Origin: a virus | Lineage: Duplodnaviria > Caudoviricetes | Strand: one strand, 5' to 3' | IMG/VR virus record: IMGVR_UViG_2931369376_000001 | Span: 1-64,000 of that record | DNA: 64,000 bases | Shown: in pieces, positions 26 through 50,242 of the stretch | Layout of the letters: the number at the start of each line of letters is the position of its first letter | Numbering within the stretch: the first letter of the stretch is position 1 | Program-made: the position numbers and the translations under genes | The notes under the pieces: generated by a model | What the model saw: the letters and a program-made list of their open reading frames with translations, nothing else | Databases searched by the model: none | Told to the model about the DNA's origin: nothing

Positions 26-86
26 CTTTAAAGCCGAGGTATTTCAACAAAAAGCCCCAAAATCGGGGCGATTGGATCAAGAAGCG

Positions 87-311
87 TCACAAGGCAACGA
101 GGTGCTGACCAGGCTGTCCATCAGGGACTGGACAGCCCAGCTCGGGGCGAACAGGCCAATCACCGCGAGCAGACATTTCACAATAGAACTCAGCACTGGC
201 TACCGCTTGCTGGTAATCCGATTCGCCGACCCAGCCAATGGCCCCAACCAGACAGCCAATCAGCAAACCCTTCCAGAACGGCTTGGGCACACACTCGATA
301 ATCTTGCGCAT
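87..311 (-). CDS. small phage protein with N-terminal hydrophobic helix
   Basis: 74-aa ORF with segment FWKGLLIGCLVGAIGWV; AT-rich promoter-like region upstream. Confidence 0.55.
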   Translation of the reverse strand: MRKIIECVPKPFWKGLLIGCLVGAIGWVGESDYQQAVASAEFYCEMSARGDWPVRPELGCPVPDGQPGQHLVAL

Positions 312-421
312 AACTTTTTCCCTTTCGTTTAGGCCGTAACCTTCGGCAAGAAAACGTTATAATTTTATTGTTTTATTCGCAAGCAAAACATTAGCGTTTT
401 ATTGGTTATTTGAGGGTTATC

Positions 422-865
422 ATGAAAATCATGGCTTCGATCAGTGGATACGCCGGCGAGAGCACCACGTTGGTGGGTCTACTCGACCCGGCTACCGGCG
501 TGCTTGCGATCGCGAAGTCGGTGCGCTTCCGGGAGGTTGGCGACGATGGATTTGCCTTTGTGACCAACACCAAGACGGAAGCCTATGACTGCCTATTCAG
601 CGAAGAACATTGGGAACAGGCCATTCGCGACTATCAGACGGCACAAGGCAACCAAACGATGGTGATGAGCGATGCGGCGAGCCGATTCACGCCAAGGCTG
701 GAAACCGATGGCGTAGACGAGAAGGGGCAAAAGTACCGATTCCACTCGGATTTGCAGAACGCGGAGATTGCCGTTTTGGCGATGGTGCACTTTCAGCAGC
801 GCCAGCTGGCGATTAACACCGCCGGCGCCGCCATGGATGAATGGTTTGATCTTGTGAGGATATGA
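422..865 (+). CDS. hypothetical phage protein
   Basis: ORF with GAGGG RBS before the ATG at 422; convergent with rep. Confidence 0.6.
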   Translation: MKIMASISGYAGESTTLVGLLDPATGVLAIAKSVRFREVGDDGFAFVTNTKTEAYDCLFSEEHWEQAIRDYQTAQGNQTMVMSDAASRFTPRLETDGVDEKGQKYRFHSDLQNAEIAVLAMVHFQQRQLAINTAGAAMDEWFDLVRI

Positions 866-871
866 AGCTGA

Positions 872-1432
872 TTACGACTCGTCGGGCTTGTGCCCAAGTG
901 GCAGCGAAGGCAGGTCCGGCTCAAACCCTTCCAGTAGACCCTGAGCGGGAGGCTCCATTCCCGGCCCAGCAGGAAGTTGCATATCACCCGGGCCAAGCGA
1001 CGGAGCTTGTCGCAGCGGTGCACTTCCAAGGTCTTGCTGATCCTCAGACGACACAATCACGCGAGCGCTGAACGATGCCAGCTTAAGATTTTCACGGCTC
1101 GATGCCCAGGCCACGCGACTGTTGACGATGTAGGCGAGACATCCGCCCCGGTCACCGCCAATACGGATTGCCTGAACCCAATTGTTATCGGTCAACACTT
1201 TCAAGGCGCGCTTAGTCGTGGCCACTGAAACGTTGTTGAGTTTGGCCAGCGTTGCATGACTGGCGACAAGCCCACCGGTTTCGTCCATATTCGCCACCAG
1301 ACGATGCAGCAGCTGGGCCGCTCGTGGGGCTTCGTCGATCAGTTGCGCCCATGCCTCGTGAGCAGCGCGTTCGGTTTGTACCCAAGTGCCGCGTGGTGCA
1401 GGCTGGTTGAGTTTGCGTATTTCTTCGGCCAT
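872..1432 (-). CDS. rep: pBBR1-type plasmid replication initiator (winged helix)
   Basis: WVQTERAAHEAWAQLI, AYIVNSRVAW and QLPAGPGMEPPAQ..EPDLPSL match pBBR1 Rep as recalled; iteron array directly upstream. Confidence 0.85.
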   Translation of the reverse strand: MAEEIRKLNQPAPRGTWVQTERAAHEAWAQLIDEAPRAAQLLHRLVANMDETGGLVASHATLAKLNNVSVATTKRALKVLTDNNWVQAIRIGGDRGGCLAYIVNSRVAWASSRENLKLASFSARVIVSSEDQQDLGSAPLRQAPSLGPGDMQLPAGPGMEPPAQGLLEGFEPDLPSLPLGHKPDES

Positions 1433-1512
1433 TCCGTGTAACCTCGACTACTTGGTAGTTACCTTACAAAAATGTCCGCTACGCATCAACCTTGTTCGTT
1501 ATCTCTCATGGA

Positions 1513-1740
1513 TGATCTAAGGGTAGTTCATGTGGAGGGGGTTTTAGGGGGTGGCTCATCGGGTGAGCTGGGTTAGCTCATTCGTGTTCGATATCTCTCA
1601 ATCTTGCACGATATCGAAACATAAATGATCTAGGGGTAGCTCACCAGCTATGACCTACCCCTAGCTCATGAACTGTGAGCTACCCTAGGTCATCAGTTAT
1701 GAGCTAGGGATGGGTCATTAAGGTGAGCTACCCCCACCTC
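1513..1740. repeat. candidate plasmid origin: palindromic iteron array
   Basis: TGA(g/c/t)CT-N-AG(c/g/t)TCA-type 17-18 bp units at 1513, 1564, 1626, 1651, 1676, 1700 and a half unit at 1724; the last five are spaced 24-25 bp. Confidence 0.8.
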
Positions 1741-1849
1741 TGGAGCCCTTGAAATACGGGGGGGTTTATTTCCTCCCTTCTCATGATCTACGGACTCCCT
1801 TTCTGCCGTTGAGCATGATTAAGTCGCCTGCGGCAGCGGCCAGTTGTGG

Positions 1850-1978
1850 CTACCGGGCAGACTTCGCTAGCCCGGCATCCACAACTGGCTTCGACTTTTG
1901 TTCGGTGGGGCGGCAACGATAGCACTTACAACCGCTAACGCGCTGGCCACTGGTACGACAGTAGATCGGGGCCTTCAT
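1850..1978 (-). CDS. 42-aa Cys-rich peptide
   Basis: MKAPIYCRTSGQRVSGCKCYRC; ATGA overlap with the ASCH gene stop. Confidence 0.45.
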   Translation of the reverse strand: MKAPIYCRTSGQRVSGCKCYRCRPTEQKSKPVVDAGLAKSAR

Positions 1979-2370
1979 ACCGTCGTCTCCTGGAGCGGCG
2001 CCAGCATGGTGCTGGGGACATTGAAAAAGCCCAGCCGCCCGGTAGCGCGAATGAATGGAACAGGCCTCGGGTCGCTCAACACGAGTGCTTTCTGCCCCAT
2101 GTACCACGGCGAGTCGCTGTTGTCTTGACTGTCGATCAGCTCCACGGACCCCACAATGCCCCCACGCAACAGCTGATCAGCCGGCGGCACTGTAACGCCA
2201 AGGCTCTTTGCAAACTCCGCAGCTTCAACATATTCAGCCTTGGTCATGCCTCCTGACGCGTGCACCAGGAAGCGCCCGCGAAATTTTGTGTGCCACGATC
2301 GATTCTCGACGTCCTTGCCGCCATGGATGATCAGCCAGGCCCATGGTTGGCGAATGCTCAGTGCTTTCAT
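1975..2370 (-). CDS. ASCH domain protein
   Basis: MKALSIRQPWAWLIIHGGKDVENRSW is the ASCH signature; start reassigned to 2370. Confidence 0.85.
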   Translation of the reverse strand: MKALSIRQPWAWLIIHGGKDVENRSWHTKFRGRFLVHASGGMTKAEYVEAAEFAKSLGVTVPPADQLLRGGIVGSVELIDSQDNSDSPWYMGQKALVLSDPRPVPFIRATGRLGFFNVPSTMLAPLQETTV

Positions 2371-2633
2371 GTGCTGCTCCCTACAGGTGGTTTCGTCAAT
2401 TCCTTCACCAGCTCCACATTCCTGGGATGCGTGAAGATGACTCCTTGAAACATAAATATCACCGGCGATTGAATCACCGTGAATCGTTGGTACCGACGCC
2501 ACATAACCCGGTGCGCCCACTTACGTTCTTTTCGATGCGCTTCCTGCCATTGGGGTAGGAACGGGTCAGCGCGAACGGGGGTTCCAATGAACGTTCGAAA
2601 CGCTTTCGGGCTGAGCCCTGACATATCGCTCAT
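2367..2633 (-). CDS. hypothetical protein
   Basis: 88-aa ORF translationally coupled on both sides. Confidence 0.6.
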   Translation of the reverse strand: MSDMSGLSPKAFRTFIGTPVRADPFLPQWQEAHRKERKWAHRVMWRRYQRFTVIQSPVIFMFQGVIFTHPRNVELVKELTKPPVGSST

Positions 2634-4378
2634 ACCAACTCCAATTGCTTTCGAAGTGGCGTTGCTGGCTCAGCCACCGGCAGCACCACGTTGTTGTCCC
2701 TGAGGTATTTTTCCGCCAGCGATCTCAAGTGGTTCTCGCCCACGTCCAGGCGTTGCAGAAGATCGTCCTGCGGGTTGCGCACGCCCTCGATTTGCTCGCG
2801 CTTGACCCCCAGCACGTCAGAAACGATCGGGTCGCTGCCTTCGTCGGAAAGCAGGTAGTACGCCATTACGGGATCAACCTGGCCGTCACGGTGTATGCGC
2901 CCCATGCATTGCTCATGGACTCCCGGCGACCAATCCAACTCACCGAATACCACCGTGCTGCATGCGTGCTGCAATCCATCGACACCCGCGCCAGCACGCA
3001 AGCTGATCAACATCACTCGGCTTTGACCATTTACAAAGGCTTCTTTGGCCGCCTGCTTCTGCGTGGGAGACTCGCTGCCCGTGTACATAACCGGATTGAA
3101 TTCGGCCAGTTTCTCTTTCCAGATTTCGTACACGTCGCGGTGCCATCCGAACAGCAACACGCGTTGCTCCGTCTCCAGCAGCAACTTCACGAACTCAGCC
3201 ACGTACGGTGCTTTGGCCACACCGGTCGCATGGCGCACCAGGACGTCCAGATCGCCCGCGGCTTTCATCTTCTGGCCACGGTGCTGCTCATTGGCGGCCA
3301 TGATGGTTTTTGCAAGCGCCACAGCGTCCCCGGTGATGCTTTCCATCACCGCGGCATCAAACTCAATCTCGTGCGCGATCTTCGACAGCGCTGGCAGCTC
3401 CCGACCTACCTCACGGCGAGTGCGGCGCAGCATCAGCCCTTCGCGGCGCAGGTATTCACCGAACGCTACGGAATCCTTGAGCCGTGGCTTGCCGTCGTCG
3501 CTGCGCTCGCACCATTCGCGCAGAAACTCGTCCCAACCGCCCAACGCATCGGGTGTCAGCACGTTCACGACAAAGAAGAATTCGCCCCCGTAGTTGTAGA
3601 TCGGCGTAGCCGTGAGCCCCATTCGCAGCTTGACCTTCTCAGCCAGGTACTTACACGCTGTGTAAATATCGCTGCCGGGGTTGCGCAACTGCTGACACTC
3701 TTCAAACACGGCATATTGCGCGATTTCGCCCAGGACTTCCGCCCACCCACGCAGCTTGTGGTAACTCACCAGAATGACGTCCGGCAATGTGTCCCACAGG
3801 TCTTTGCGGCGCTGGCCAGGCTTCTTGATCAGGTCGTAAGGCCTGCCGCTGTTGACGTGATGCACACGCAGGTTTGGCAGGAACTCGGCCATTTTCTCTG
3901 GCCAGTGGTTTGGCAGTGACGCCGGGTACACTACGACGGCGGGCAAGTTGCCCTCAGCTGCCATCAGACACATGGCGGTTACGGTCTTTCCCAACCCAAG
4001 GTCATCGGCGACCAGGAGCCCGCCGCGGATACCTGTCTGAACCGCGGCGAAGCGTTGGTAATCGCGCGCAGGTTTGGCCAGTTCGAACGGAGGCATATCC
4101 ATACGTCCGGCCAGCAGCTCGGCCAGGCTCGATTCCATCTGTACATGCTCTGACGCCAGCGCATCCAGCGTGCAGGCTGTCTCAGGCTCCATGGTCATCG
4201 GGTACCGTTGCAGAAACCACAACAGCTCACGGCTGTTTTCAGCGCTGGCCAGCAATTTGATGACTTCGGAGGCCTCTTGCGGCGCACGCGGAAACACCCG
4301 CTTGAGGCGAGCCCGAACCTGGGGCTCGCATTTGATGAACCAATAGCGCCCGACGAACTCAATTTGCCCATAGCTCAT
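2630..4378 (-). CDS. SNF2-family (SF2) helicase/ATPase
   Basis: ADDLGLGKT (motif I), VFEECQQLRN (II), GLTATP (III), SLRAGAGVDGLQ (V), QCMGRIHRDGQ (VI); start at MSYGQ, coupled to the upstream gene. Confidence 0.9.
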   Translation of the reverse strand: MSYGQIEFVGRYWFIKCEPQVRARLKRVFPRAPQEASEVIKLLASAENSRELLWFLQRYPMTMEPETACTLDALASEHVQMESSLAELLAGRMDMPPFELAKPARDYQRFAAVQTGIRGGLLVADDLGLGKTVTAMCLMAAEGNLPAVVVYPASLPNHWPEKMAEFLPNLRVHHVNSGRPYDLIKKPGQRRKDLWDTLPDVILVSYHKLRGWAEVLGEIAQYAVFEECQQLRNPGSDIYTACKYLAEKVKLRMGLTATPIYNYGGEFFFVVNVLTPDALGGWDEFLREWCERSDDGKPRLKDSVAFGEYLRREGLMLRRTRREVGRELPALSKIAHEIEFDAAVMESITGDAVALAKTIMAANEQHRGQKMKAAGDLDVLVRHATGVAKAPYVAEFVKLLLETEQRVLLFGWHRDVYEIWKEKLAEFNPVMYTGSESPTQKQAAKEAFVNGQSRVMLISLRAGAGVDGLQHACSTVVFGELDWSPGVHEQCMGRIHRDGQVDPVMAYYLLSDEGSDPIVSDVLGVKREQIEGVRNPQDDLLQRLDVGENHLRSLAEKYLRDNNVVLPVAEPATPLRKQLELV

Positions 4379-4752
4379 AGGGATTGCCTCGCCAGCCTGA
4401 CCATCTGAAATGGCTTGTCCAGCCAAACCGGTTTTGTGGTCAGCTCCTGGCCCGCCCACCGCGGCGTACCGGCAAGAACTACCCCAGTGACGCCAGGCAG
4501 GTTGATGTAGCGCCCGACTTGATGGAGAGCATCGGACAGGCTTCCGCCTACCTTGACTTCGATCACCACACCATCCAGCCAAAAGTCCGCACGATTCCGT
4601 GCATCCAGCACGCGCTCACGCTCAAACTCGAAGCCATACAGGGTCAGCACTTCGGCAATGCGCTGGTGCAGCTGGATCTCGTCGCCGTAGCGATAGGCGT
4701 AGCGGCTAAGGTGAGTAACCAGGGCGTTGAGGACAATCCGGGGCTCAGACAT
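4375..4752 (-). CDS. PD-(D/E)xK nuclease-fold protein
   Basis: E...RADFWLDGVVIEVK followed by QVGRY. Confidence 0.7.
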   Translation of the reverse strand: MSEPRIVLNALVTHLSRYAYRYGDEIQLHQRIAEVLTLYGFEFERERVLDARNRADFWLDGVVIEVKVGGSLSDALHQVGRYINLPGVTGVVLAGTPRWAGQELTTKPVWLDKPFQMVRLARQSL

Positions 4753-5089
4753 GGCAGGCCTCGATCGTCAGAGGGGTGGTGTTCCACAGGGTGACGATTC
4801 GCCCAAGGGACTGGCATTCATCCCTTGGGATTGGCACTTCTCGGTTACAGAGCTTGCATACCATTCGGCGCTGGAAAGCTCCCCGCACCAGCTTGACGTC
4901 GTACTCAGTGGTGTCATACGACGGGTCCTGGCCGCACCCGCGGCAAGCGTGCAACAACGAGAACAACAACTGACGCCTGGCGTCTACGCCCAAGAGTTTT
5001 GCCGCCTGATCGACGTCGACCTCAAACGCGGAGTCATCCCCGTAGAAGGCACGGCTCAAAACACGCTTACCCTGCATATTCACCTCCAA
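4745..5089 (-). CDS. Lar-like (restriction alleviation) zinc-ribbon protein
   Basis: CRGCG...VCKLCN...TLWN pattern typical of the Lar family. Confidence 0.5.
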   Translation of the reverse strand: MEVNMQGKRVLSRAFYGDDSAFEVDVDQAAKLLGVDARRQLLFSLLHACRGCGQDPSYDTTEYDVKLVRGAFQRRMVCKLCNREVPIPRDECQSLGRIVTLWNTTPLTIEACHV

Positions 5090-5125
5090 ACCCCACCTAA
5101 AACGCAGAATCCGGCATTCAAAAAC

Positions 5126-5136
5126 TATCCCCGGAC
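5126..5136 (-). promoter_or_regulatory. 11-bp operator copy
   Basis: TATCCCCGGAC in an AT-rich promoter region upstream of the Lar/nuclease/SNF2 operon. Confidence 0.7.
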
Positions 5137-5237
5137 ATATATAAAGAATATTACCATTTATTTGCTATTGTTTTATCAATAATTGGTGGCCAGTAACACA
5201 AACGGCGCCGAGAGGCGCCGTATCGATTGCGGAGCGA

Positions 5238-5576
5238 TCACGCCCGGGCTAAAAGTTCGTTCACCACCAGGCCGGAATCGACGAAATACCAGTCGCTATC
5301 GGTCAGATTGTTGATGAGGAACTGCGCGACCTCTGCTTTGGTGTGACGCTTGATGAAGCGCTGCATTTTGAGGGACGGGCCCCTCCACTCCGGCTCAAAG
5401 CCCAATAGCTTCGCGGCGGCCAGGTTGTGGTGTCCGTCCAGTAAAACGCGGTACAGGGTGCCGCCCAGCTCAATGGTCAGGGTGCTGACAATGAACGTTT
5501 TGAACGTCTCGGCCTTGCGCTGCACCTTCTTCGGGTTCAGGTAGCGCTGGGAGCTGATCAGGGGTGGCAGGTTCAT
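5238..5576 (-). CDS. small ParB-N/sulfiredoxin-like domain protein
   Basis: LYRVLLDGHHNLAAAKLLG; no HTH or dimerisation domain. Confidence 0.6.
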   Translation of the reverse strand: MNLPPLISSQRYLNPKKVQRKAETFKTFIVSTLTIELGGTLYRVLLDGHHNLAAAKLLGFEPEWRGPSLKMQRFIKRHTKAEVAQFLINNLTDSDWYFVDSGLVVNELLARA

Positions 5577-5767
5577 GGGTTCACCTTTTCTTCTGGATCA
5601 AGTTTGAACTCCCGGCACATGGCGTAAGCGGCCATTGAGCCAAGGCCAAAGGCATCGCGCACCAACGCCCACCGCACGCGCACCGGCTGATCCTTGGACG
5701 GACGCATATTGCGCACGGCCATTTCCAACAGCGATCGCTCGTCGAATTGCTGGCCGGCCAGGATCAT
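5573..5767 (-). CDS. hypothetical phage protein
   Basis: 64-aa ORF with coupled overlaps; RWALVRDAFGLGS. Confidence 0.6.
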   Translation of the reverse strand: MILAGQQFDERSLLEMAVRNMRPSKDQPVRVRWALVRDAFGLGSMAAYAMCREFKLDPEEKVNP

Positions 5768-6411
5768 TGTGCACCTCCTGCGCCGGCTGAGCGCACCAGG
5801 ACAGACTTGTGGGAACTCGTCCCAGCCAATGCCATGGTGGTGATGAAATAATGGTTCTGCCGGCGGTTGTAGACGACTTCCTCACGGTCGGTACCGGCGA
5901 AGAGCACCTGCTGAGCCTTCACACATAACGGCCTGCCGCCAACGGTGAAGCTGAGGTAATCACCCGGCTGGATTTGTCCTTGCTTGGCCAGTGGACGCCA
6001 GCCACTGCCGCTAACCTGGACTGCCTGCGCCAGCCTTGGGTGCAGCTTGAGTACGTCGGCGCCGGTATCCAACACCTCGTTGGCTGGATGAAGCAACGCA
6101 CGCACGCCTATAACAACCCTGCCGAAACTACCGCCGTCATCGATCTCAAGCAGCTTGCGCAGCACCCGCTGGCAGGCGTGCGCATCACCAATGTCGAAGA
6201 GTTCCAGCGGAATATCTTCAGCCTTGGGCTGACTGGTCAAGCTGTCCGGTAGGAACCCGCTGCGAACGGCCTCGAGGAAAGACATCATCTGCATGACGCA
6301 TTGCACGTCTTCAGTGCCAGCCCTAGCCACCCGCATTCCATAAAGCAGCGGCTCAAGCCGAGACGACGCCTGTGCGGTGTCATGTTCCATTTGACGATTG
6401 CGATCCGACAT
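5764..6411 (-). CDS. hypothetical phage protein
   Basis: Long ORF; start reassigned to MSDRNR, just downstream of an operator. Confidence 0.65.
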   Translation of the reverse strand: MSDRNRQMEHDTAQASSRLEPLLYGMRVARAGTEDVQCVMQMMSFLEAVRSGFLPDSLTSQPKAEDIPLELFDIGDAHACQRVLRKLLEIDDGGSFGRVVIGVRALLHPANEVLDTGADVLKLHPRLAQAVQVSGSGWRPLAKQGQIQPGDYLSFTVGGRPLCVKAQQVLFAGTDREEVVYNRRQNHYFITTMALAGTSSHKSVLVRSAGAGGAQ

Positions 6412-11804: not shown

Positions 11805-13856
11805 CTATTTCCCCACGCAAATAAAGGTGTATCCGACGATGCCGGCAGGAACTGCAATGGCCCCTGCGCTTACGGTACGCGCCAGAACGTCAATCCCATT
11901 AACGGACGCCCCTTGACAGCTCATAAACGTTGCGGAGCTTGATGTACTAATCGAGTAAGCCAGCAGCGAAGTATTAAAAGCCATCGCCAGATTTATATGG
12001 GCTGTACCTGCTCCCGCGGGAATTTGACCGTTTGCCCACTGGATAACAAAATTGCCGAGCCACGACGGGAAAGCGAGATAGCCGTTTGAACCAAAGCTAG
12101 CTGCAAACCCCCAACGCATTGTCTTTGGCGTGACCACAACGTTATCTAGAACGCCTGCGTCTACTTGCGCCTGCGTGGCTAACTGGTCGCTACTCAGTAA
12201 ATTGGACCAATACAAAACGCCGCCGGGCATGGTGTATTGACCTACCCAAAACCTCCGGTTACTGCTCGATGTTCCGGTTTCAAACACGTAGTAATAAGTG
12301 CAATCACTTCGTGGAGTGATTGCCAAAACGCCCAGTACCTTGTTGTCACTCTCGGGAGGCGCATTAGGTGTAGCAAGGTTTGGAACAAGTGCCCCGTAAG
12401 CCAGGTATAACCCCCCGGTGTTTATCGCCTTGAAGTCACCCAGGACGGGCGCGCCGACACCCCCAAGCCCAAATTGACCGATACTAATCTTTCCTGTCAT
12501 AAGGTCTTGCATGGCTGTCGACTGTACGTCGCGTACCGAGCCATCCTCGGCGTACCAGGCCGTGCCCCCGGCAGTCGACAAGGTGATAGTGTCGAACTGC
12601 TTAAGGATGATGGAGCCACCGTCCCCAACCCCAGGCATACCCGCGACGTAGTTGGTTGCCGGCAGCTTTATCGTAACTGCGCCGGTTGAAACGTTAGTGA
12701 AGTTGACGACACCCCCGTTAGGGCCAGTACTCCCCAAAGGCAACGTGACGGTGAACGGATTTACCGAGTTAAGTAAGTAGCCCATGCCAAACGTATTGAC
12801 TGCGGTCAGGGCTGTGTTAGCGCTCAAGCTACCAATTGCTGCGTGGTTACCCGAACTCTTTTTGACGAACTCTGTAGTGGACAACTTCGTTGTGTTATCA
12901 AACAGGGCTGGTGTTGGGGCCGAGGGCGAACCAGTTAGCGCCGGACTGGCCAATGGTGCCTTGAGCAACAGTCCTTTAATAAAACGCCGAACTGACACCC
13001 AACTAGTACTATCTACAGCCGTTGTTCCTGTGACCTCCGCCTCGGTGGCCTCGGCGCTCGCAAAGCCCGCACCAGCAGTAAGCTGGAACGTCGCGCCGTC
13101 GTAATACACGTCATAGACGCCGCCGGCCACAATGCTTCCAGCCGTGAGAGGGACCCCTCCGGTCTTAAGCACCTGCACCGGCCCGACGCCCTCAACATTG
13201 ATCGTGGTGTCGCCGGTATTACTGCTGAGTGCCTTGAAGCTAAAGCGGTTGCCCTTGATATATTGGGTGAGTTCCACAATATCCGGGAGGGTCAGTGTGA
13301 TGGCGTTGGCAGTCCCGCCCACGTCGCCCCACAGATGGCCCTGGTAGTCCGGAAACTTGGCACGGAGTACATACTGGGGGTGGGCGTTGTAAGCGCCTTC
13401 ATGGGCGGCCAGCGCGGCCAGCGCCACGCTTTCGTCGGGATCGATGACAAAGCTGATGCTGTTGGCAGGGACTGCGGAAAACGCCAGGTCATTGAACAGG
13501 ACGTAGGTCACGCCATTCGTCTTGTAAGACGCAACGGTACCGTCGGCCTTCGACCAGACGAAAGCCAGCGTATCGCCGGCCCAAAACGCGATCTCGCCAA
13601 TACCGACCTGGCCGACATCCTCGCGCCAGGCGCTGACCATACGGATTTGATAGGGCGTTGGGCGACTTGCTCCGGCGACCGGCACCTTGTTCCCCACAGG
13701 GGCTACAAGCTCCAGCTCTTCCCCGGTGGGGTCGTAATGCGCCGTGCCGAAGGAAACGTGCGTGATTTTGAGCTCAAGCCCGTCATTGCTGGCGTTGAAC
13801 GCGGCAGCCTGCCCCGCCAAAGTCAGTGTCGGGTTGATGATAATCGGGTCAGCCAT
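11805..13856 (-). CDS. tail fibre protein
   Basis: Baseplate-attachment N-terminus (TLTLAG..ITHVSFG), SPALTGSPSAPT..TTEFV repeat, C-terminal GYLAFPSWLGNFVIQW domain. Confidence 0.85.
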   Translation of the reverse strand: MADPIIINPTLTLAGQAAAFNASNDGLELKITHVSFGTAHYDPTGEELELVAPVGNKVPVAGASRPTPYQIRMVSAWREDVGQVGIGEIAFWAGDTLAFVWSKADGTVASYKTNGVTYVLFNDLAFSAVPANSISFVIDPDESVALAALAAHEGAYNAHPQYVLRAKFPDYQGHLWGDVGGTANAITLTLPDIVELTQYIKGNRFSFKALSSNTGDTTINVEGVGPVQVLKTGGVPLTAGSIVAGGVYDVYYDGATFQLTAGAGFASAEATEAEVTGTTAVDSTSWVSVRRFIKGLLLKAPLASPALTGSPSAPTPALFDNTTKLSTTEFVKKSSGNHAAIGSLSANTALTAVNTFGMGYLLNSVNPFTVTLPLGSTGPNGGVVNFTNVSTGAVTIKLPATNYVAGMPGVGDGGSIILKQFDTITLSTAGGTAWYAEDGSVRDVQSTAMQDLMTGKISIGQFGLGGVGAPVLGDFKAINTGGLYLAYGALVPNLATPNAPPESDNKVLGVLAITPRSDCTYYYVFETGTSSSNRRFWVGQYTMPGGVLYWSNLLSSDQLATQAQVDAGVLDNVVVTPKTMRWGFAASFGSNGYLAFPSWLGNFVIQWANGQIPAGAGTAHINLAMAFNTSLLAYSISTSSSATFMSCQGASVNGIDVLARTVSAGAIAVPAGIVGYTFICVGK

Positions 13857-19039: not shown

Positions 19040-19948
19040 TTAGTGACCCCTGATCACGGAATCGACAACCGACAGCGCCTTTTTCACGCCGCTGGCCACG
19101 GCGGCGATCGCGCCCTTGTCCTCTTTTTCGGGTTCAGCCTGGTAGCCCGGCAGTTCGGGGGTCAACATGAACCGGTTGGCGCTGTCGAGCATATCGGCGC
19201 CGATGTTCATATTGATCCCGCGCTCCATCACCGCCGGCGCGCTGTCGAGCATAGGCGCCTCGATTTTGGCCTGGCGCAGACGCTCCAGTAGCCGCGCGTT
19301 GTGTTCCACCAGCTCATCGTTGATCTTGCACTGCGCCAGGTAGTCGGTGCTGATCGATGCGGCAAAGGCGTCCGATTCCTTGATCATCGAATCCACAGAG
19401 TCCAGCAATGCAGCGTTTTCCGACGCGAACGTGTCTACCGACGCAAAAACGCCTGGTGCCACGCTGTCGAGCATCACCGCATAGCCGCGGTTGTCGTCAT
19501 AGTTGGGAGCGCGCACCAGGTCCATGCCGAAGTACCCCTTGGGCACGCGCACACCGCCTTCCTCTGGCGCGTAGATGGCCGAACTGAAGCCATAGGCCTT
19601 GCTACCCCACAGGCGTTCGCCGACGCGGCCCGGGGCGGTATCCAGAAACTCTTGCTCGTGTTCTACGTCACCGTTGGGATAGCACTTGAGGTAGATCGTG
19701 CGCACCGCCGGCTCCAGCACCACCGGCTTGCCGTCAACAATCACCGTTTCAGGCACATCGAGTGTGTATTTCTCCCGGTACTGGTGACCGATATAACCCA
19801 CCACGTCGCCTTTCTGGATCGCTTCCTGGGTGGCAGCACCGTTGAACAGGCGCATGGCGGCGTCGATATCGATCTTGCGCGGCTGGCCGGTGAAGCTGCG
19901 CCCGATGTTGTTCAAGTTGTAGCGAATAACGCCCGTGCGCTTACCCAT
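19040..19948 (-). CDS. pro: prohead protease (P1 Pro-like)
   Basis: GYIGHQYR, VEHEQEFLDTAPG, GFSSA, GMDLVRAPNY match P1 Pro as recalled; follows the portal gene. Confidence 0.75.
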   Translation of the reverse strand: MGKRTGVIRYNLNNIGRSFTGQPRKIDIDAAMRLFNGAATQEAIQKGDVVGYIGHQYREKYTLDVPETVIVDGKPVVLEPAVRTIYLKCYPNGDVEHEQEFLDTAPGRVGERLWGSKAYGFSSAIYAPEEGGVRVPKGYFGMDLVRAPNYDDNRGYAVMLDSVAPGVFASVDTFASENAALLDSVDSMIKESDAFAASISTDYLAQCKINDELVEHNARLLERLRQAKIEAPMLDSAPAVMERGINMNIGADMLDSANRFMLTPELPGYQAEPEKEDKGAIAAVASGVKKALSVVDSVIRGH

Positions 19949-21563
19949 TCTTTCCGTCCTCTTCTTCGTTGTCGGCGCCAGCCACTGGGGGCAGATCGAT
20001 GTCGTTGTCTCCGCCGCCGAAGCCTGGTTGCGCCGGTGGCTTGGCGTTGGCCAGGCCCTTGGCGAACATGTCAGCCGCCTCCTGGTCGAGTTCTGCTGTC
20101 TTGGCCAGCATGTAGGCGTTGGTTTTTTCGTCCATGCCGATATCGCGCATCTGCGCCAGGATCTGGACCAGGATCGCGGCCTTGTTCATGGCCTTCTCGG
20201 AGCTGGCTTGCTTTTCAGCCTCCAGCGCCGCGATACCGCCGTAGAAATTGATCGTGTAGGGGCGTTCGGAGTCCGGCCAGCACTTGCCGTACTTGGCCAT
20301 CATGTGGCGGTCTATGGTGTCGTTGCAGGTCTTGGTGTAGCTGGTGCGCAGCATCCTGGCGCGCTCGGCGCCTTGGCTGCTAGTGCGGTTGAATCCGCCG
20401 TCACCCAGGCCACCCGACAGCTGATCGGCAAAGCCCAGCATGGAAATGTCGGTACCGAGGGTGCCCGCCAGCTTCTTGGCATGGAACAGCACATCCTCGA
20501 CGCCCAGGTTCTGGCCGTTGGCGCCTGATGCGATGGCGCTCACCTGGGTCAGCTGCTTTTCGTTCCAGACCGGCATGATGTTGAAGTTGCGCGACGTCGA
20601 GTAAACGCCCTCTTCCACCTGCTTGTGCGCCCGGGCCTTCATTTCCGTGAGCATCTTGGTGGTGTTTTCGAGAATCTTGGCGCGTTGCTCCTTGGTAGTG
20701 TCCGCCATGTTCATCGTCAGCAGCACTTCCTCGATGGAGCTGGCGATACGCTGCCCGACCAAACCGCGCAAGGCGGAATACAGGTTGTCGAAGTCCTGCT
20801 CTGCCGCTTCCAGCAGGGAGCCGCCCACCAGCGCCGGGAGCGGCATGATGTTGCGCAGGTCAGTGGCTTCGAGATTGATCTTCTGTGCGTTCTCGATGGC
20901 CTTCATCTGCGGCAGCATCAGCATGCGCGGCATCTTCAGGCGCACCATGTCCATATGGCTGACGCGGCTCTGTAGCTTCTCGCCCAGGCTCACGACATAG
21001 CCAACAGTCCGGCCCAGTTCCTCGTATGGCTGCACCAGGGGCGAAAAGAGTGATTCATGGTCGAACGCCACCAGGCCTTCGCCCTTGACGGTGTACAGCC
21101 GCGCATAGGCATCGCCAAACCCGCCGGCGTTAAAGCCCATGGAGTGCGCACTGTCGTTGAGCATTTTGATGACCGGCGCCAGCTCGTCGACCATCTTCTG
21201 GTCACCGCGGGAGATTCTTGGCTTTGCCTCCAGGAACACGGTTTCTCCTGTGGTTTCATGCCCGCCCAGCGCCATCTGGATGTTGTTGCGCAAGGCCGTG
21301 GAAATAAGGCCTTCCTGCATCATGAAGTGGTACTTCATGTAGATTTGCGAGCGGGTGCGCACTGGCTTGCCGGAGTTGCCCAGCAGCATTTCAATGCCGA
21401 CATAATCCGAATCGAACGTGTCCACCTGAGCCAAGCGGCTCATAGCCTGCTGATTGGCCTGGCTGGCGCTCATATCGGATAGTTGGCCGCCCAGGATTAG
21501 ATCCCGCGCACCGCCGACCAGACGCGCCACCAGGCCTTTTGGGGATTCAGTTGAATTGGCCAT
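19941..21563 (-). CDS. prt: portal protein (P1 Prt-like)
   Basis: LGFADQLSGGLGDGGF..T, HMMAKYGK..P..ERPY. Confidence 0.85.
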   Translation of the reverse strand: MANSTESPKGLVARLVGGARDLILGGQLSDMSASQANQQAMSRLAQVDTFDSDYVGIEMLLGNSGKPVRTRSQIYMKYHFMMQEGLISTALRNNIQMALGGHETTGETVFLEAKPRISRGDQKMVDELAPVIKMLNDSAHSMGFNAGGFGDAYARLYTVKGEGLVAFDHESLFSPLVQPYEELGRTVGYVVSLGEKLQSRVSHMDMVRLKMPRMLMLPQMKAIENAQKINLEATDLRNIMPLPALVGGSLLEAAEQDFDNLYSALRGLVGQRIASSIEEVLLTMNMADTTKEQRAKILENTTKMLTEMKARAHKQVEEGVYSTSRNFNIMPVWNEKQLTQVSAIASGANGQNLGVEDVLFHAKKLAGTLGTDISMLGFADQLSGGLGDGGFNRTSSQGAERARMLRTSYTKTCNDTIDRHMMAKYGKCWPDSERPYTINFYGGIAALEAEKQASSEKAMNKAAILVQILAQMRDIGMDEKTNAYMLAKTAELDQEAADMFAKGLANAKPPAQPGFGGGDNDIDLPPVAGADNEEEDGKNG

Positions 21564-22862: not shown

Positions 22863-23972
22863 TTACCCCTTTACCTTTTCCACTGCGCTGAGCGCTGCGG
22901 CGATCTGTTTCGCGCTGAAGCCTTGAGCCTGCATGGCTGCCATGAGCGCCTGGTGCTGGACGCTGGAGGCCTTCCTGTTCACCTGTGAGGCTTTACTGGC
23001 GCGCAGCCGGTCATTGGCCGCCTTCACCCTTCGCGCCTCCTGCTGGCGCTGGTACGACGGCTGTGCCTGGCGCTGTGCCTTCTGCTCTTCAGCCGTTTTG
23101 ATGACCGTCCCGCGCTTGGCCTTTTGGCGATCGCGCAGCGCCTGCTCAATGAATGCCTGCTGTTCGGCCACAGTGACGGGGGTTTGCTTATTGCTCAGGG
23201 TGCGCCGACCGGTTTCGATCATGCGCTTGGCGAACAGGTTGAATGTCGCCCCGGCGTTGATGGTGGCCATCACGCGAATGACGTGCTTGCAGGCAATCCC
23301 CATGAGTTTGGGGTTTCGGATGCGTGGGAAGCCGTCCTCAGGGCGTCCATAGTTGAAACTTCCGATGCTGGCGATATAGCGGTACCAATACGTGTGTCGC
23401 CCACAGTCACAATCGAATTTCAGCTTGCCCGCCAGCATTCGCCGCGCGGCCTCCAGGGCAGTGTTGCCATCCGCCAGCACCTTGTCGTAGTCCAGGAACT
23501 GCACCATGACGTGGTGGCGCGCTACGTCCGACTTCGCGCTGGCATTGGTCTGGATGTGCACGACACCGCCGCGGTTGCTGACGGGGATAACGGTATGGAT
23601 TTCACGGCTGGCGCGCCCACGGTCATCCGGTGATGACAGGTTGATCACCTGCTTGGCCAGGATCCCGCCGCCGGCACCGGAGACGGGCACGTTGCCCTTG
23701 CGCTGACCATGCCGACGCTGAATGTCGTGGACCGCGGCCCGGAACGCTATCAAATCGTCGCGCGTCAGCGGCCTGAACTCACCGCCGAGAGTCGTGAACA
23801 GCCCCCGCTTGGGGTCGTACAGGCCGGCCATATCGTCGGCGGACAGAATGGCGTTCTGGTCCCCGATCCGCTGCGCGCGGTCAGCCTCGAAACGTCTGCG
23901 GGCCTCCGCGCTCAGCTTGTTCGCAGCGACCACCAGCGTGTCGCGGGGGCGGGCTCCCTTCTTGGCAGCCAT
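22863..23972 (-). CDS. P1 gp25-like protein with SWIM-type Zn motif
   Basis: FDCDCGRHTYWYRY...FPRIRNPKLMGIACKHV nearly identical to P1 gp25 as recalled. Confidence 0.75.
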   Translation of the reverse strand: MAAKKGARPRDTLVVAANKLSAEARRRFEADRAQRIGDQNAILSADDMAGLYDPKRGLFTTLGGEFRPLTRDDLIAFRAAVHDIQRRHGQRKGNVPVSGAGGGILAKQVINLSSPDDRGRASREIHTVIPVSNRGGVVHIQTNASAKSDVARHHVMVQFLDYDKVLADGNTALEAARRMLAGKLKFDCDCGRHTYWYRYIASIGSFNYGRPEDGFPRIRNPKLMGIACKHVIRVMATINAGATFNLFAKRMIETGRRTLSNKQTPVTVAEQQAFIEQALRDRQKAKRGTVIKTAEEQKAQRQAQPSYQRQQEARRVKAANDRLRASKASQVNRKASSVQHQALMAAMQAQGFSAKQIAAALSAVEKVKG

Positions 23973-24268
23973 CAGCGGACCGACCTGGTAGCCGTGACGA
24001 TGCCGGCTTTTTGCTTGAGATAAGCCAGGTGTTCTTTGGTGGGCAGCACCACGTCTTGCTCCACCAGCTCGCTGTCTACCGTCGACAATCCAGCAGCGGC
24101 CATAACCACCAGCGTTTCAGTAGCATCACCGTAGACGCGCAGCGCCATCATCGGCAGGTGATAGCGCTCACTCGGGAAGCTGCGCACTACCTGGCGGCGG
24201 GACGAATAGGACGGCTCGGTCAGTGCGAACTTGCGCACCTCCAGATAAAACCGGGCTTCGGGGATCAT
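23972..24268 (-). CDS. P1 gp26-like baseplate (LysM/tail X-like) protein
   Basis: LPMMALRVYG....VVMAAAGL....VLP. Confidence 0.6.
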   Translation of the reverse strand: MIPEARFYLEVRKFALTEPSYSSRRQVVRSFPSERYHLPMMALRVYGDATETLVVMAAAGLSTVDSELVEQDVVLPTKEHLAYLKQKAGIVTATRSVR

Positions 24269-24294
24269 TGGGCGGCCTCTGTGAACACCCGGGA

Positions 24295-24335
24295 ATTATC
24301 CGGGCATCACCAGCGGCGCCGGCGAGGCACTTTGC
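24295..24335 (-). promoter_or_regulatory. late promoter (gp26-25-7 operon)
   Basis: GCAAAG-N29-GATAAT. Confidence 0.6.
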
Positions 24336-24362
24336 GCGACTCGAGGACTTTGAGACAGGCCG

Positions 24363-24393
24363 AAAAAAACCGCCCCAGCCGAAGCCAGGGCGG
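24363..24393 (-). terminator. rho-independent terminator of the small-peptide unit
   Basis: CCGCCCTGGC-TTCG-GCTGGGGCGG followed by a T run on the minus strand. Confidence 0.8.
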
Positions 24394-24409
24394 CCCCACC
24401 TATCAGACC

Positions 24410-24508
24410 TTACAGGCCATCAAAGTAGTCTCGCAGCAGTTCGTATGTGTGATGAACACGCACACAAACCACCACGAAGTCCCACGCACGTCTTAACAAC
24501 TTAGACAT
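24410..24508 (-). CDS. 32-aa peptide, candidate type I toxin
   Basis: MSKLLRRAWDFVVVCVRVHHTYELLRDYFDGL; AGGAGG 7 nt before the ATG; structured leader; own terminator. Confidence 0.65.
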   Translation of the reverse strand: MSKLLRRAWDFVVVCVRVHHTYELLRDYFDGL

Positions 24509-24939
24509 ACACGGCCCTCCTGTTGCTGGGCCGTCCTCCAGCACGCTTACCGGAACACGCGTGCCTTCGGGACACTTCACCAAGCGTTCCCTGTGAGGCG
24601 GCTGGGCTGATGGCCTCCCAAAACATCCTCCGGCACGGGTTCCTAATCCGTGAAGGGAGGGCCAAAATTCGCGCGCAGGCCCGGCCAACTCAAAGGTGAC
24701 GCACGCGGAACGGCCCCATCTTACCCCATAAATCTTCAGGTAATGCGCGGCGCCGTGGCTCATTTTGCTAGACTGCCCGCAAGGCTTCTTGGTGTTTTAT
24801 AAAACGTTATTTCCGGGCACCTATACCCGCCCAAGCCGATCACGGGAAAACGCCCCCTAAACGATGACAGGCGATTAACGGGAGTGAAGCAGCGTTATTC
24901 CCCATTGCGTCATTGATCAAATGTGAATAACATTATCTC

Positions 24940-25026
24940 CACACCAAGCGTTCCCTGTGAGCGAGCAAGCCCAACCCCTAATTGGATTTGCAAAGAAAGA
25001 CCGCCTCTCCTAAGGCGGTTTTTTTT
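24940..25026 (+). ncRNA. candidate antitoxin sRNA (~87 nt)
   Basis: TTGCGT-N17-TAACAT promoter (24905-24933); 5' 20 nt identical to 24578-24597; internal hairpin; terminator ACCGCC..GGCGGT plus T run. Confidence 0.65.
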
Positions 25027-25050
25027 CGCCTGCATTTTCCCCGGCCAGAC

Positions 25051-25075
25051 AAAACAAACCCCGCACAAGGCGGGG
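25051..25075 (-). terminator. rho-independent terminator
   Basis: CCCCGC/GCGGGG stem followed by TTTGTTTT on the minus strand. Confidence 0.6.
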
Positions 25076-25346
25076 CAATGTCCAACAGACGCGCTACTCC
25101 TGGTCCTGCCACTTCCTGTGCGGCCAGGTCTTATCGGTATATGCCATGGCGGCTTCCCTGCTGCTGAAGCGCCTGCGCATCACCTTGTCAGGGTGCCCTT
25201 TGTCCTTGGGATCGCCCGTGATGTAGGGCGCCCAGGCCAACCAATAGTCAGCTTCAGGCTCATCATTCCAGCCATGGGCTGCGAAGCCCCTGCGCCGTCA
25301 ACTCGCGTCCAGCTGCTTGGCCGGAACTCACTCCACAGCGACACCT

Positions 25347-26147: not shown

Positions 26148-26536
26148 GCTGCCACCTGCTGCGCGTTGTCTTGCGCTGCGTGGAAATCGGCGTGGCGGGT
26201 GTAGGTCACTTTTTTGCACTTGCGGGAAACTGGGAACTCCCGCCCACCGACCCGGCAGAAATAATCCCGTGTGACGGCTCTCGGCTTGGTTCGCCGTTCA
26301 TTGCGAGCGCTCAGGCTCTCGATTGCGCCCACACGCACCAAGCTGGCGCGGTGTATCCGGACCAGGCCCTGGTCGCCGGCCTCGATCATCTTGAGCGCGT
26401 GATCGCCGGTAAGCATCCACTCCACACCGTCGACGTCCAGCGCCGACACGTATTTATCGTCAGCCCAAAAGGCGACGAACACCGAGGAATCCACCTTTTC
26501 GGGCCGACGGTGCCAGTTCTTCCTGAAGCGGCGCAC
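26144..26536 (-). CDS. stand-alone LytTR DNA-binding protein
   Basis: FWADDKYV...LVRIHRASLV...FPVSRK. Confidence 0.8.
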   Translation of the reverse strand: MRRFRKNWHRRPEKVDSSVFVAFWADDKYVSALDVDGVEWMLTGDHALKMIEAGDQGLVRIHRASLVRVGAIESLSARNERRTKPRAVTRDYFCRVGGREFPVSRKCKKVTYTRHADFHAAQDNAQQVAA

Positions 26537-26559
26537 TTCTATAGCGTTACCTCACAAAA

Positions 26560-26570
26560 TATCCCCGGAC
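26560..26570 (-). promoter_or_regulatory. 11-bp operator copy
   Basis: TATCCCCGGAC 24 nt upstream of the LytTR gene. Confidence 0.7.
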
Positions 26571-26667
26571 AATAGATCGCGCTTTTTTGCGCAAGAATGA
26601 CCAGAAGCACGGGGTTTGCTTCGTGTCTCCGAAGGAATATACACCAGCAAACAATAAAATGTATGTT

Positions 26668-28218
26668 TTATGCGACGTCGGCGAACATGTCGGCGGCTTT
26701 ACTCAGGGTTGCTTCGGCGCGCGAGGTCTGCGCCACCTCTGTCTCTTCGTTGCACGCGACATAGTTCACGTCCTCGAGGAAGGCCATGCATAGCGTGTCA
26801 AAAAGGTCCGGGGACGACAGGCCGTCAGCGGCCATGCTCTCTTTGCTGGCGATCTTGTACCGGCCCAGCTCGTCGAAGGCGTAGGGCAGGCGTGAGCCCT
26901 GGTCTATGAGGTCGCGCTTATATTTGGTCGACAGCTTGACCACGCCGTCCTTGATCGCCTCGGTAGCGTGCACGGTGCACTGCGCCCGCTGGTTGATGAA
27001 GCGCTTACGGTTCTCGTTGGAGTGCGGGCGGGCGCCCCATTGGACACCCTGGATGATCATGCTGCCCTCTTGCAGCTCCTGAAGCCGGCGCAGGAACTGC
27101 ATGCCCATGGCACTGACGTCGATAACGATGGTGACGTTCGGGAAACGCATTGCGTAGTCACGCAGCTTGACCGCCAGCGGCGTCCAGTCCTCGGATGCGC
27201 TGTAGATTGGGATGTCGACAACCTCAACCCGTCGGCGCCGCTCGTTCGCCATGCGATCGCCCTTGCCGCTGACGCGCAGATGGGTGGCCACCGTCTTGTC
27301 TCGCCCAACGCCCGCGGCGACGTCGACAACGATGAGGTGCCCCCACTCTTCTCCCGGAAGGATTGGACTGGCCAGGCCCATGGCCCGCTCGATCATGACC
27401 GAACTCAACAGGTACTTGCTGAGGTTGGTCGGGAACATCCCCCGCACTTTGATCTGATATTCCGGCTCGTCGACGCCGCCGTACTGGAGCCGCTTCTCCT
27501 TGATGAACTTGATGCCCACAATCGGGCTTTCTTCGGAGTTGAACACCAGCGGCACCCACGAGCCGCCGCGGTGGATCGACTGGCCGTGGTGGGTTTCCCA
27601 GAAGAACCCGGTCGAGCGCGTGGGCTGGCTGGCCATGATGAAGCGGTTGCGCTCATCAGTCATCGCGCCGCCAATCACGCCAAAGTTTTCGTCAGGGATC
27701 CCCGACGCTTCGTCCGCCAGCCAAAGCAGGTAGTCGGCGTGGGTACCGGCCAGGTTCTCAGGCGAGCCGCGCGGTGCGGTGCGGGTGGTGACGTACCAGG
27801 TGGCGCTGTGCCCGGCCACGTAGACTTTCTCGGCCTGAATCACAACGTAGTCAGCGATCCAGGCATGCGGGCCTTTGCGAATCTCGGCCAGCATGGTGGT
27901 GATTTCTTTCCACACACCCTCTCGCACCGTCTTGAGTTTCGGCGCGGTCACGTAGGTGTTGGAGTTGAAGTAGCACAGCAGGTGCCAAAGGCAGATGACG
28001 CCGAAGCTCCGGGTTTTACCAGTACCGTGGCCAGACGATACCGATACCCGGCAGCCATAGGCTGAGGACTCATCAAAAAGCTCTTGCTGTTGCGGTGTGA
28101 CATCCATCAAACACGCTTCAACCGCAAAGCCGTACAGGTTGAAGGCGTAACGCTCAATGAATTCGGGCCACCTCGGGTCTGCCTCTAATCGCAGACTCTT
28201 GGGTTTCGGCTTGGCCAT
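26668..28218 (-). CDS. terL: terminase large subunit (P1 PacB-like)
   Basis: Walker A SGHGTGKT, Walker B LWLADEASG, nuclease acidic motifs VDVAAGVGRD and SPDLFD. Confidence 0.92.
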   Translation of the reverse strand: MAKPKPKSLRLEADPRWPEFIERYAFNLYGFAVEACLMDVTPQQQELFDESSAYGCRVSVSSGHGTGKTRSFGVICLWHLLCYFNSNTYVTAPKLKTVREGVWKEITTMLAEIRKGPHAWIADYVVIQAEKVYVAGHSATWYVTTRTAPRGSPENLAGTHADYLLWLADEASGIPDENFGVIGGAMTDERNRFIMASQPTRSTGFFWETHHGQSIHRGGSWVPLVFNSEESPIVGIKFIKEKRLQYGGVDEPEYQIKVRGMFPTNLSKYLLSSVMIERAMGLASPILPGEEWGHLIVVDVAAGVGRDKTVATHLRVSGKGDRMANERRRRVEVVDIPIYSASEDWTPLAVKLRDYAMRFPNVTIVIDVSAMGMQFLRRLQELQEGSMIIQGVQWGARPHSNENRKRFINQRAQCTVHATEAIKDGVVKLSTKYKRDLIDQGSRLPYAFDELGRYKIASKESMAADGLSSPDLFDTLCMAFLEDVNYVACNEETEVAQTSRAEATLSKAADMFADVA

Positions 28219-49816: not shown

Positions 49817-50242
49817 CTATGCCGCGCCACGGTGTTCATGTTCATGGTCCTGGTACTGCTGGCTGCTGTACCAACGCGCCAGAAGGGCCCGGACTTCTTC
49901 AGGTACGTCTCGCCCCGCCACCTCGACCATTTGCACGCAGGCCTCAAGCAGCACGATCTCCCGGGCGTATTCGGCGATAAAGTCGGCCTTGTTGCCGTGT
50001 ACCGCCTTCATCGACTTGATAGGGCCGGTACCGGGCTGGTGGTGGCCGGCACAGAGCGGCAGCACGTACCAATGCGCGTGCTTTTTCGTGCGGCCATCGC
50101 AGTGATGGATTGACACATAGGCGTGCTCTTCGTAATTGCGCGGCCTCCCGTCCAGGATGCAGCAGATGCAACCGCACACGTCCGCCACGGTGTCATGCCA
50201 CCGCTGCTCGCCCATCGTCTTGGTTCTTCCGTCCATTGCCAT
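49817..50242 (-). CDS. Ref-like HNH nuclease (recombination enhancement)
   Basis: GCICC...IHHCDGR...VLPLCAGHH. Confidence 0.7.
   Translation of the reverse strand: MAMDGRTKTMGEQRWHDTVADVCGCICCILDGRPRNYEEHAYVSIHHCDGRTKKHAHWYVLPLCAGHHQPGTGPIKSMKAVHGNKADFIAEYAREIVLLEACVQMVEVAGRDVPEEVRALLARWYSSQQYQDHEHEHRGAA

Follow-up and report, generated by a model that had tools for sequence, protein, structure and literature searches.

The window analysed here, a 64,000-nucleotide stretch of viral DNA, very probably carries at positions 872-1870 a complete iteron-type theta replicon, consisting of an origin (oriV) and an initiator gene (rep) of the pBBR1/IncP-9 family, which most likely allows a temperate myovirus, distantly related to P1, to persist as a circular plasmid prophage of low copy number. 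The window is identical in sequence to bases 1-64,000 of CP048608.1, an 80,993-bp circular record named 'plasmid unnamed' from Pseudomonas fluorescens DR133, isolated from the soybean rhizosphere. In this complete genome, CP048608.1 is a replicon of its own, apart from the chromosome. Circularity, for which the original prediction had proposed a check, was borne out by this record, whereas the copy held as a virus in IMG/VR (CheckV completeness estimate of 95%) is listed as linear. PLSDB assigns no replicon type to CP048608.1 and describes it as non-mobilizable. The present analysis would place this Pseudomonas phage-plasmid in a known replicon family and give a function to rep, whose product is named only 'helix-turn-helix domain-containing protein' in GenBank.

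The rep gene and the adjoining origin

The rep gene (872-1432, minus strand) is an intact ORF which, according to homology, encodes a 186-aa replication initiator. In a BLASTP comparison, the search that had been proposed in the original prediction, pBBR1 Rep (NC_025015.1, 1781-2455) indeed aligned with the protein over 175 aa, with 49% identity (E 3e-53). Identity to the IncP-9 Rep of pWW0 was 62% (E 1e-81). The similarity to pBBR1 Rep spanned an N-terminal WVQTER.AHEAWA block, the winged helix-turn-helix (wHTH) and a Pro-rich C-terminal tail, which is conserved (QLPxGPGxEPPxQ...EPDLP). These alignments assign the protein to the pBBR1/IncP-9 Rep family.

The AlphaFold model of Rep (AF2, 65 homologues, pLDDT 77) was characterized by a single winged-helix domain, approximately from residue 20 to 105, followed by a mostly non-regular tail. 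A Foldseek search with this model returned generic winged-helix regulators only, and no two-domain initiator of the RepE, pi or RepA type. Rep also scored below the curated threshold of every Pfam and NCBIfam family, its winged-helix matches being sub-threshold; with Pfam RepL (PF05732), it reached 14.4 bits for a cut-off of 20.3 (E 0.027). A remote kinship between Rep and RepL is plausible, since more distant Rep homologues are annotated as RepL by NCBI.

Using tblastn, 212 records with Rep homologues were found among 72,556 plasmids. The best of these matches were Pseudomonas plasmids (60-69% identity), followed by small alphaproteobacterial plasmids (43-53%) and then by small plasmids with a 'RepL' annotation (approximately 30%). 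The closest Rep relatives were located on 57 Pseudomonas plasmids, and the top match, P. migulae CP043572, is a MOBF/MPF_T conjugative plasmid, as IncP-9 plasmids are. Only one of the 212 records was also recovered by a search for P1-type portal proteins, and this was CP048608.1 itself. Among 50,697 phage records, the sole Rep homologue was an ORF of the temperate Burkholderia phage FLC5 (29.5% identical).

Upstream of rep, at 1513-1740, approximately eight units of a 17-18-bp palindrome-like iteron, TGAnCTA-N3/4-TAGnTCA, were observed. The iteron array described in the original prediction is thus present and exceeds chance, and its binding by Rep is predicted. The 18-bp form of the unit (TGAnCTA-N4-TAGnTCA) was found at 1513, 1626, 1651 and 1700, with 0-1 mismatch, and matched the window five times versus 0.61 expected by shuffling. 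The 10-mer half-site GGGTAGCTCA had 12 matches in the 64 kb (3.1 expected by shuffling), seven of which fell within 1521-1733. Variant units were located at 1547-1558, 1564-1580, 1676-1692 and 1724-1735.

Overall, two iteron clusters were distinguished: a rep-proximal cluster (1513-1580) with three units (1513-1530, a half unit at 1547-1558, and 1564-1580), which aligned with the iterons of pWW0 and pNAH20; and a rep-distal cluster (1626-1740) with five units (at 1626, 1651, 1676, 1700 and 1724) and the core TGAGCTACCCC, exhibiting a spacing of 24-25 bp and alternating orientation. The two clusters were separated by an A+T-rich spacer (1575-1625), a local G+C minimum (38% GC versus approximately 60% around it) and a candidate DNA-unwinding region. 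This spacer holds two GATATCGnnCAnGnnTG repeats (1579-1595 and 1599-1615), which are also kept in the oriV of the IncP-9 plasmids pWW0 and pNAH20, and a third GATAWCG-type repeat was located in the rep leader (1487-1503). The pattern of this second repeat family, GATAWCGnnCAnGnnTG, had three matches in the window, all of them in the rep-oriV region, versus 0.41 expected.

The rep leader and putative promoter region (1433-1512, minus strand) contained a GAGG ribosome-binding site approximately 9 nt before the ATG and a weak candidate promoter, TTGATG-17-TAAGGT, which was kept in the sibling phage-plasmids described below. The rep promoter is regarded as putative, since a consensus sigma-70 scan gave no match. 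A search for DnaA boxes returned none better than chance, and the only Rfam match was a spurious, sub-threshold miRNA hit on the palindromic iterons.

The original prediction had ended the replicon at position 1740. The iterons do end within this limit, but homology to IncP-9 oriV extends to approximately 1870. This distal oriV segment (1741-1870), defined by the five-way alignment presented below, exhibited many invariant columns across three phage-plasmids and two IncP-9 plasmids; its conserved blocks were GGGCTCCAGAG, GAGATCATGAGAA and a G+C-rich stretch, CTAGCGAAGTCTG...GGCCGCTGCCGCAGGC.

Upstream of oriV, we also observed a 42-aa Cys-rich ORF (CX9CXCX2C; 1850-1978, minus strand), beginning with MKAPIYCRTSGQRVSGCKCYRC, which overlaps the end of an ASCH gene and whose 3' end falls inside the oriV homology. 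This ORF, unannotated in GenBank and without a match to any Pfam family, was kept in both IMG/VR siblings (L011 and L012).

Comparison with IncP-9 and pBBR1 replicons

To describe the relationship between the DR133 cassette and IncP-9 replicons, the origins of DR133, two siblings, pWW0 and pNAH20 were aligned. Pairwise identity between DR133 oriV and IncP-9 oriV was 68-72% over approximately 385 nt, and blocks of invariant columns were found across approximately 450 nt of the five-way alignment. The iteron core TGAGCTACCCC was common to all five origins. Moreover, the iterons and GATATCG-type repeats were in register and in the same order in DR133 and IncP-9 oriV. In both, oriV lies directly upstream of rep, and in pWW0 and pNAH20 the Rep homologue occupies the IncP-9 res-oriV-rep position. 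The Rep proteins of IncP-9 plasmids (pWW0/TOL, pM3/pMT2, NAH7, pDTG1, pNAH20, pUTK21) were 61-62% identical to DR133 Rep, with a length of 184-189 aa. Like IncP-9 replicons, the closest Rep homologues are carried by MOBF/MPF_T conjugative Pseudomonas plasmids.

At the DNA level, DR133 rep was 63-69% identical to the rep genes of pWW0, pNAH20 and pUTK21, while those of pWW0 and pNAH20 were 74% identical to each other. Between IncP-9 subgroups, the reported identities are 74-92% for rep and 64-93% for oriV (PMC2885752, Sevastsyanovich et al. 2008). DR133 rep falls below this range, whereas its oriV homology and shared iterons are those of an IncP-9 origin. In the Rep tree, the phage-plasmid Reps formed their own clade (99/99 support), outside the pWW0/pNAH20 clade (100/100); this tree is read for its unrooted clades only, its midpoint root being set by the discarded Thiobacillus_L034 row (wrong frame).

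The DR133 element differs from IncP-9 plasmids in that the carrier of the replicon is a phage and the IncP-9 backbone (res resolvase, parA-parB-korA and MOBF/MPF_T transfer genes) is absent. No resolvase or transfer genes were present in the annotation of CP048608.1, and the match between DR133 ParA and IncP-9 ParA was limited to a 46-aa Walker region. Judged from these sequence comparisons, the cassette is a divergent IncP-9-like replicon in the pBBR1/IncP-9 Rep family, and not IncP-9 proper. We use this label because the origin aligns with IncP-9 oriV and not with pBBR1 oriV.

With pBBR1 itself (Bordetella bronchiseptica, NC_025015/X66730), the DR133 cassette shares the features of Rep given above (49% identity, WVQTER.AHEAWA block, wHTH and C-terminal tail), and pBBR1 rep is also preceded by repeats, which contain AGCTCA. 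However, pBBR1, a mobilisable plasmid of 2.7 kb, has a Rep approximately 35 aa longer and repeats that differ from those of DR133 in sequence and number. No meaningful alignment was obtained between the two oriV sequences. The small-plasmid, pBBR1-type label of the original prediction could not be retained, with an origin that aligns at 68-72% with IncP-9 oriV and not with that of pBBR1. Rep, the iteron core and approximately 385 nt of oriV all match IncP-9, a replicon carried by large conjugative Pseudomonas plasmids, and this rules out a small broad-host-range replicon of the pBBR1 type. The pBBR1 rep-oriV has been described as distantly related to IncP-9 yet compatible with it (PMC2885752). 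Stable coexistence has been reported for pBBR1 and pMT2.

The same prediction held that a broad-host-range replicon could change the copy number and host range of the prophage. A change of host range was not supported, since Pseudomonas plasmids are the natural carriers of this replicon type. With the closest relatives of Rep on the 57 Pseudomonas plasmids, there is no reason to expect a wider host range. IncP-9 is not a broad-host-range group. Its tabulated hosts are Pseudomonas and Escherichia (PMC6312765), and the title of a 2005 paper cited in the same source states that replication of pM3 in E. coli needs both rep and par.

Catabolic and resistance plasmids of the IncP-9 group may be unable to coexist with this phage-plasmid, although we put such incompatibility forward tentatively, as somewhat less probable than compatibility. 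It is considered because the DR133 origin has the very iteron core of pWW0 and pNAH20, and its oriV is as similar to IncP-9 as that of the iota subgroup. Plasmids of this subgroup have been reported to remain incompatible with IncP-9 plasmids at an oriV identity of only 64-67% (PMC2885752). The prediction would set a temperate phage against environmentally important IncP-9 degradative and resistance plasmids. If it is true, TOL/NAH-type plasmids could be lost when the phage lysogenizes their host, or an IncP-9 plasmid already present could prevent lysogeny, and phages and plasmids of soil pseudomonads would be in conflict purely through replicon incompatibility.

Maintenance of the phage-plasmid

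Using PHROG searches, a complete myovirus gene set was identified in CP048608.1. The portal (19941-21563), the large terminase (26668-28218), baseplate, tail fibre, tail-associated lysin and Hdf-like genes were located inside the window, and PmgG-like, sheath, gp23-like capsid and DarB-like genes just past its end. Among the P1-type accessory genes, we found homologues of the Ref-family recombination-enhancement nuclease (49817-50236, minus strand; named from its homologues in two related plasmids, W01 and W02, see below) and of RdgC/HrdC (52501-53628, plus strand; 38% identical to P1 HrdC). The DR133 portal was 27-28% identical to P1 Prt and 39% identical to the portal of Xanthomonas phage Rb1, and identity to P1 gp23 was 25%.

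The view that this element is a phage-plasmid was upheld by its separate circular replicon and its P1-type virion genes (portal, sheath, gp23-like capsid, and PmgG-, Hdf- and DarB-like genes). The description 'P1-like' was correct with respect to the types of virion and accessory genes, but the relationship is only distant, with 25-28% identity in hallmark proteins. From its gene content, the DR133 element is best named a phage-plasmid, for which kinship to P1 is true but distant.

As in P1, an iteron-controlled replicon and an active partition locus are predicted, from the genes present, to keep a temperate myovirus as a plasmid, and the P1-type virion, Hdf, DarB, PmgG, RdgC/HrdC and Ref genes are part of this likeness. 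In contrast, for the maintenance system of P1 (RepA/oriR/incA-incC, ParAB/parS and RepL/oriL), a tblastn search with RepA, RepL, ParA and ParB gave no homologue at E <= 0.01 in the 81-kb element, and the hallmark proteins have diverged to 25-28% identity (38% for HrdC). A second initiator was likewise not detected in it: P1 RepA, RepL and the RPA initiators of its relatives were all without a match, and ten large hypothetical proteins of the element matched no replication family in Pfam.

The original prediction was correct in seeing no parA/parB pair in the window. The same record does encode a 231-aa ParA (VirC1/CbiA-type) and a 121-aa partner ('stability/partitioning determinant') at 73,380-74,437 of CP048608.1, past the window end and, across the record start, approximately 7.5 kb from rep. 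This locus is common to pKF715C (69% and 43%) and is unrelated to IncP-9 par. Its ATPase, a small type-Ib-like ParA, and 121-aa partner also distinguish it from the partition system of P1.

At 55028-56239 (plus strand), the element encodes a tyrosine integrase of the P4 type, which has an arm-binding domain and is 57-59% identical to its homologues in W01 and W02. It may serve integration or dimer resolution. With this enzyme, the element could also exist in integrated form.

A dispersed asymmetric 11-mer, TATCCCCGGAC, was present in 12 copies (≤1 mismatch) versus 0.67 expected, located at 15-25, 5126, 6417, 8475, 26560, 30503, 33148, 34369, 51741, 52385, 54240 and 56372. This putative prophage operator is reminiscent of the C1 operators that are scattered over the P1 genome, where C1 governs the lytic replicon and not the plasmid replicon. 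No copy of the 11-mer was found in 26-5125, which spans rep-oriV, so this region would lie outside the putative repressor regulon. By analogy with P1, an operator-free rep-oriV favours a maintenance role at the time of lysogeny.

Two viral contigs of IMG/VR carry the same rep (85-87% amino-acid identity) and oriV, and are syntenic with DR133 on both flanks (73-80% nucleotide identity). A fourth Rep, 84% identical, was found on an 82-kb contig, and the four phage-plasmid Reps make up the 99/99-supported clade. A scan of genome contigs yielded no additional siblings, its sole matches being pUTK21 (IncP-9) and a fragment of a Thiobacillus MAG. Among the three siblings, the dN/dS of rep ranged from 0.03 to 0.065 with dS >1, a level near saturation at which these figures are rough. 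Judged from these substitutions, rep is under strong purifying selection. The divergence of rep (85-87% amino-acid identity) was similar to that of neighbouring backbone genes, and the association between rep and the phage backbone appears to be old, since dS exceeds 1 between siblings. The iterons and the spacer were kept in all three siblings and in IncP-9 plasmids.

Based on the protein family and on the anatomy of the region, we propose that the single-winged-helix Rep binds the approximately eight 17-18-bp palindrome-like iterons, and that the 38%-GC spacer between them melts so that the host replisome can be loaded. Copy-number control (handcuffing) and autoregulation would result from surplus iterons and from binding of Rep beside the rep promoter, and segregation would be ensured by the separate locus of ParA and its small partner approximately 7.5 kb away. 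Statements on the working of the IncP-9 origin rest on PMC2885752 and on inference.

Three other explanations were considered. Rep and oriV could form a lytic origin like P1 RepL/oriL, fired on induction, with maintenance of the prophage left to another system or to integration. We regard this as unlikely: all characterised relatives of Rep belong to plasmid-maintenance replicons, iterons flanking an A+T-rich spacer are the architecture of a copy-controlled plasmid origin, and P1 RepL has no similarity to Rep. Moreover, no dispersed prophage operator lies near rep, and in the assembly the element is a free circle, which has a par locus. On the other side, a tyrosine integrase is present, the only Rep homologue of the phage database sits in a temperate Burkholderia phage, and, no second initiator having been found, one replicon may serve both modes.

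Compared with plasmid maintenance, it is very unlikely that the cassette is an inactive passenger, left behind when the phage once recombined with an IncP-9-like plasmid, and has ceased to drive replication. Such a history would fit the lack of rep-oriV in the nearest backbone relatives and its location in a 5.6-kb mosaic block, whose two flanking genes are direct neighbours in these relatives. However, the rep ORF is intact and its dN/dS is low (0.03-0.065, with dS >1, across three siblings), the iterons and spacer have been kept in these siblings as in IncP-9 plasmids, and no alternative initiator was detected. Finally, Rep could be a mere helix-turn-helix transcription regulator and the repeats its operators, in line with the generic wHTH regulators returned by Pfam, NCBIfam and Foldseek and with the GenBank name. 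This is highly improbable for a protein whose homology to pBBR1 Rep and IncP-9 Rep covers its full length, including the C-terminal tail, and whose adjoining DNA is homologous to the mapped IncP-9 oriV. Repressor activity would in any case not exclude an initiator function, since autoregulation is expected of such initiators.

Replicons on related phage backbones

A portal search among plasmids identified four closer relatives of the phage backbone. A Rep of the DR133 type was found neither in these four nor in phage Rb1. Two of the relatives, the P. atacamensis SM1 plasmid NZ_CP070504.1 (W01) and P. putida pKF715C (W02), had most phage genes in common with DR133 in a gene-by-gene comparison, with 50-70% identity and a similar order. 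For 12 core proteins, largely in the same order, identity to DR133 was 60-61% in W01 and W02 and 43% in B. vietnamiensis pBVIE05. The initiators, in contrast, differed. W01 and W02 encode a Pfam RPA 'replication initiator protein A' (E 1e-62) at another locus, next to a homologue of DR133 23972-24268, and pBVIE05 carries an 'initiator RepB protein'. Related phage backbones thus bear at least three non-homologous initiator types, in addition to P1 RepA.

The left junction of the replicon block in DR133 is marked by a phage-backbone ORF (422-865, plus strand), convergent with rep and with 6 bp between the two stops. Homologues of this ORF were present in W01, W02 and a further relative, W03 (35-47% identity). 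In W01 (12574-13402) and W02 (26292-27168), an Hdf-like gene lies immediately beside the homologue of ORF 422-865, and rep is absent from this junction. In DR133, these two genes are separated by a 5.6-kb block (872-6411), absent from this position in W01 and W02, which comprises rep, oriV, the small Cys-rich ORF, the ASCH gene, an SNF2 helicase gene and others. The block seems to be mosaic, since the ASCH and SNF2-helicase genes have homologues elsewhere in W01 and W02. The Hdf-like protein was shorter in DR133 (396 aa) than in the relatives (510-523 aa).

No remnant of an RPA gene was detected in DR133, at the syntenic slot (24269-25346) or elsewhere. This slot consists of 1.08 kb without annotated genes and adjoins the DR133 counterpart of the gene beside which the relatives carry their RPA-type repA. 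Since no decayed RPA gene was detected in DR133, a replacement within one and the same locus was not demonstrable.

The tree of 12 backbone proteins had the topology (pBVIE05,(DR133,(W01,W02))), with full support. From this comparison of genomes, replicons have been exchanged within this phage-plasmid lineage. The direction of exchange is not readable from these taxa, because the two RPA-bearing plasmids are sister to DR133 and the replicon of the outgroup is of a third type. Hence, of the original statement that the replicon had been 'swapped in', exchange agrees with the RPA or RepB-type initiators of the nearest relatives, but the direction does not follow from an outgroup of a third type. 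In the history that we propose, the oriV-rep cassette was derived from, or is co-ancestral with, the replicon of IncP-9-like conjugative Pseudomonas plasmids, and would then have been inherited vertically in a small phage-plasmid clade whose sister lineages have non-homologous initiators.

In phage-plasmids, the repertoire of phage genes has been described as conserved and that of plasmid genes as variable (Pfeifer et al. 2021, PMC7969092), and exchanges of replicons between such elements and plasmids have been published before. What is new here is the pairing of an IncP-9-like replicon with this phage backbone; our literature search found no paper tying phage-plasmids to IncP-9 replicons, and two reviews name both separately. 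The four-way modularity on one phage backbone (IncP-9-like, RPA, RepB-type and P1 RepA) fits the published rule that phage-plasmids keep their phage genes and exchange their plasmid genes (PMC7969092, PMC10879196).

Among the relatives, W01 (NZ_CP070504.1) also exhibited an unusual large terminase gene (68468-70744), 2.3 kb long and annotated as 'Hint domain-containing homing endonuclease'. This annotation, together with the alignment of DR133 TerL on both sides, suggests the insertion of an intein in the W01 terminase.
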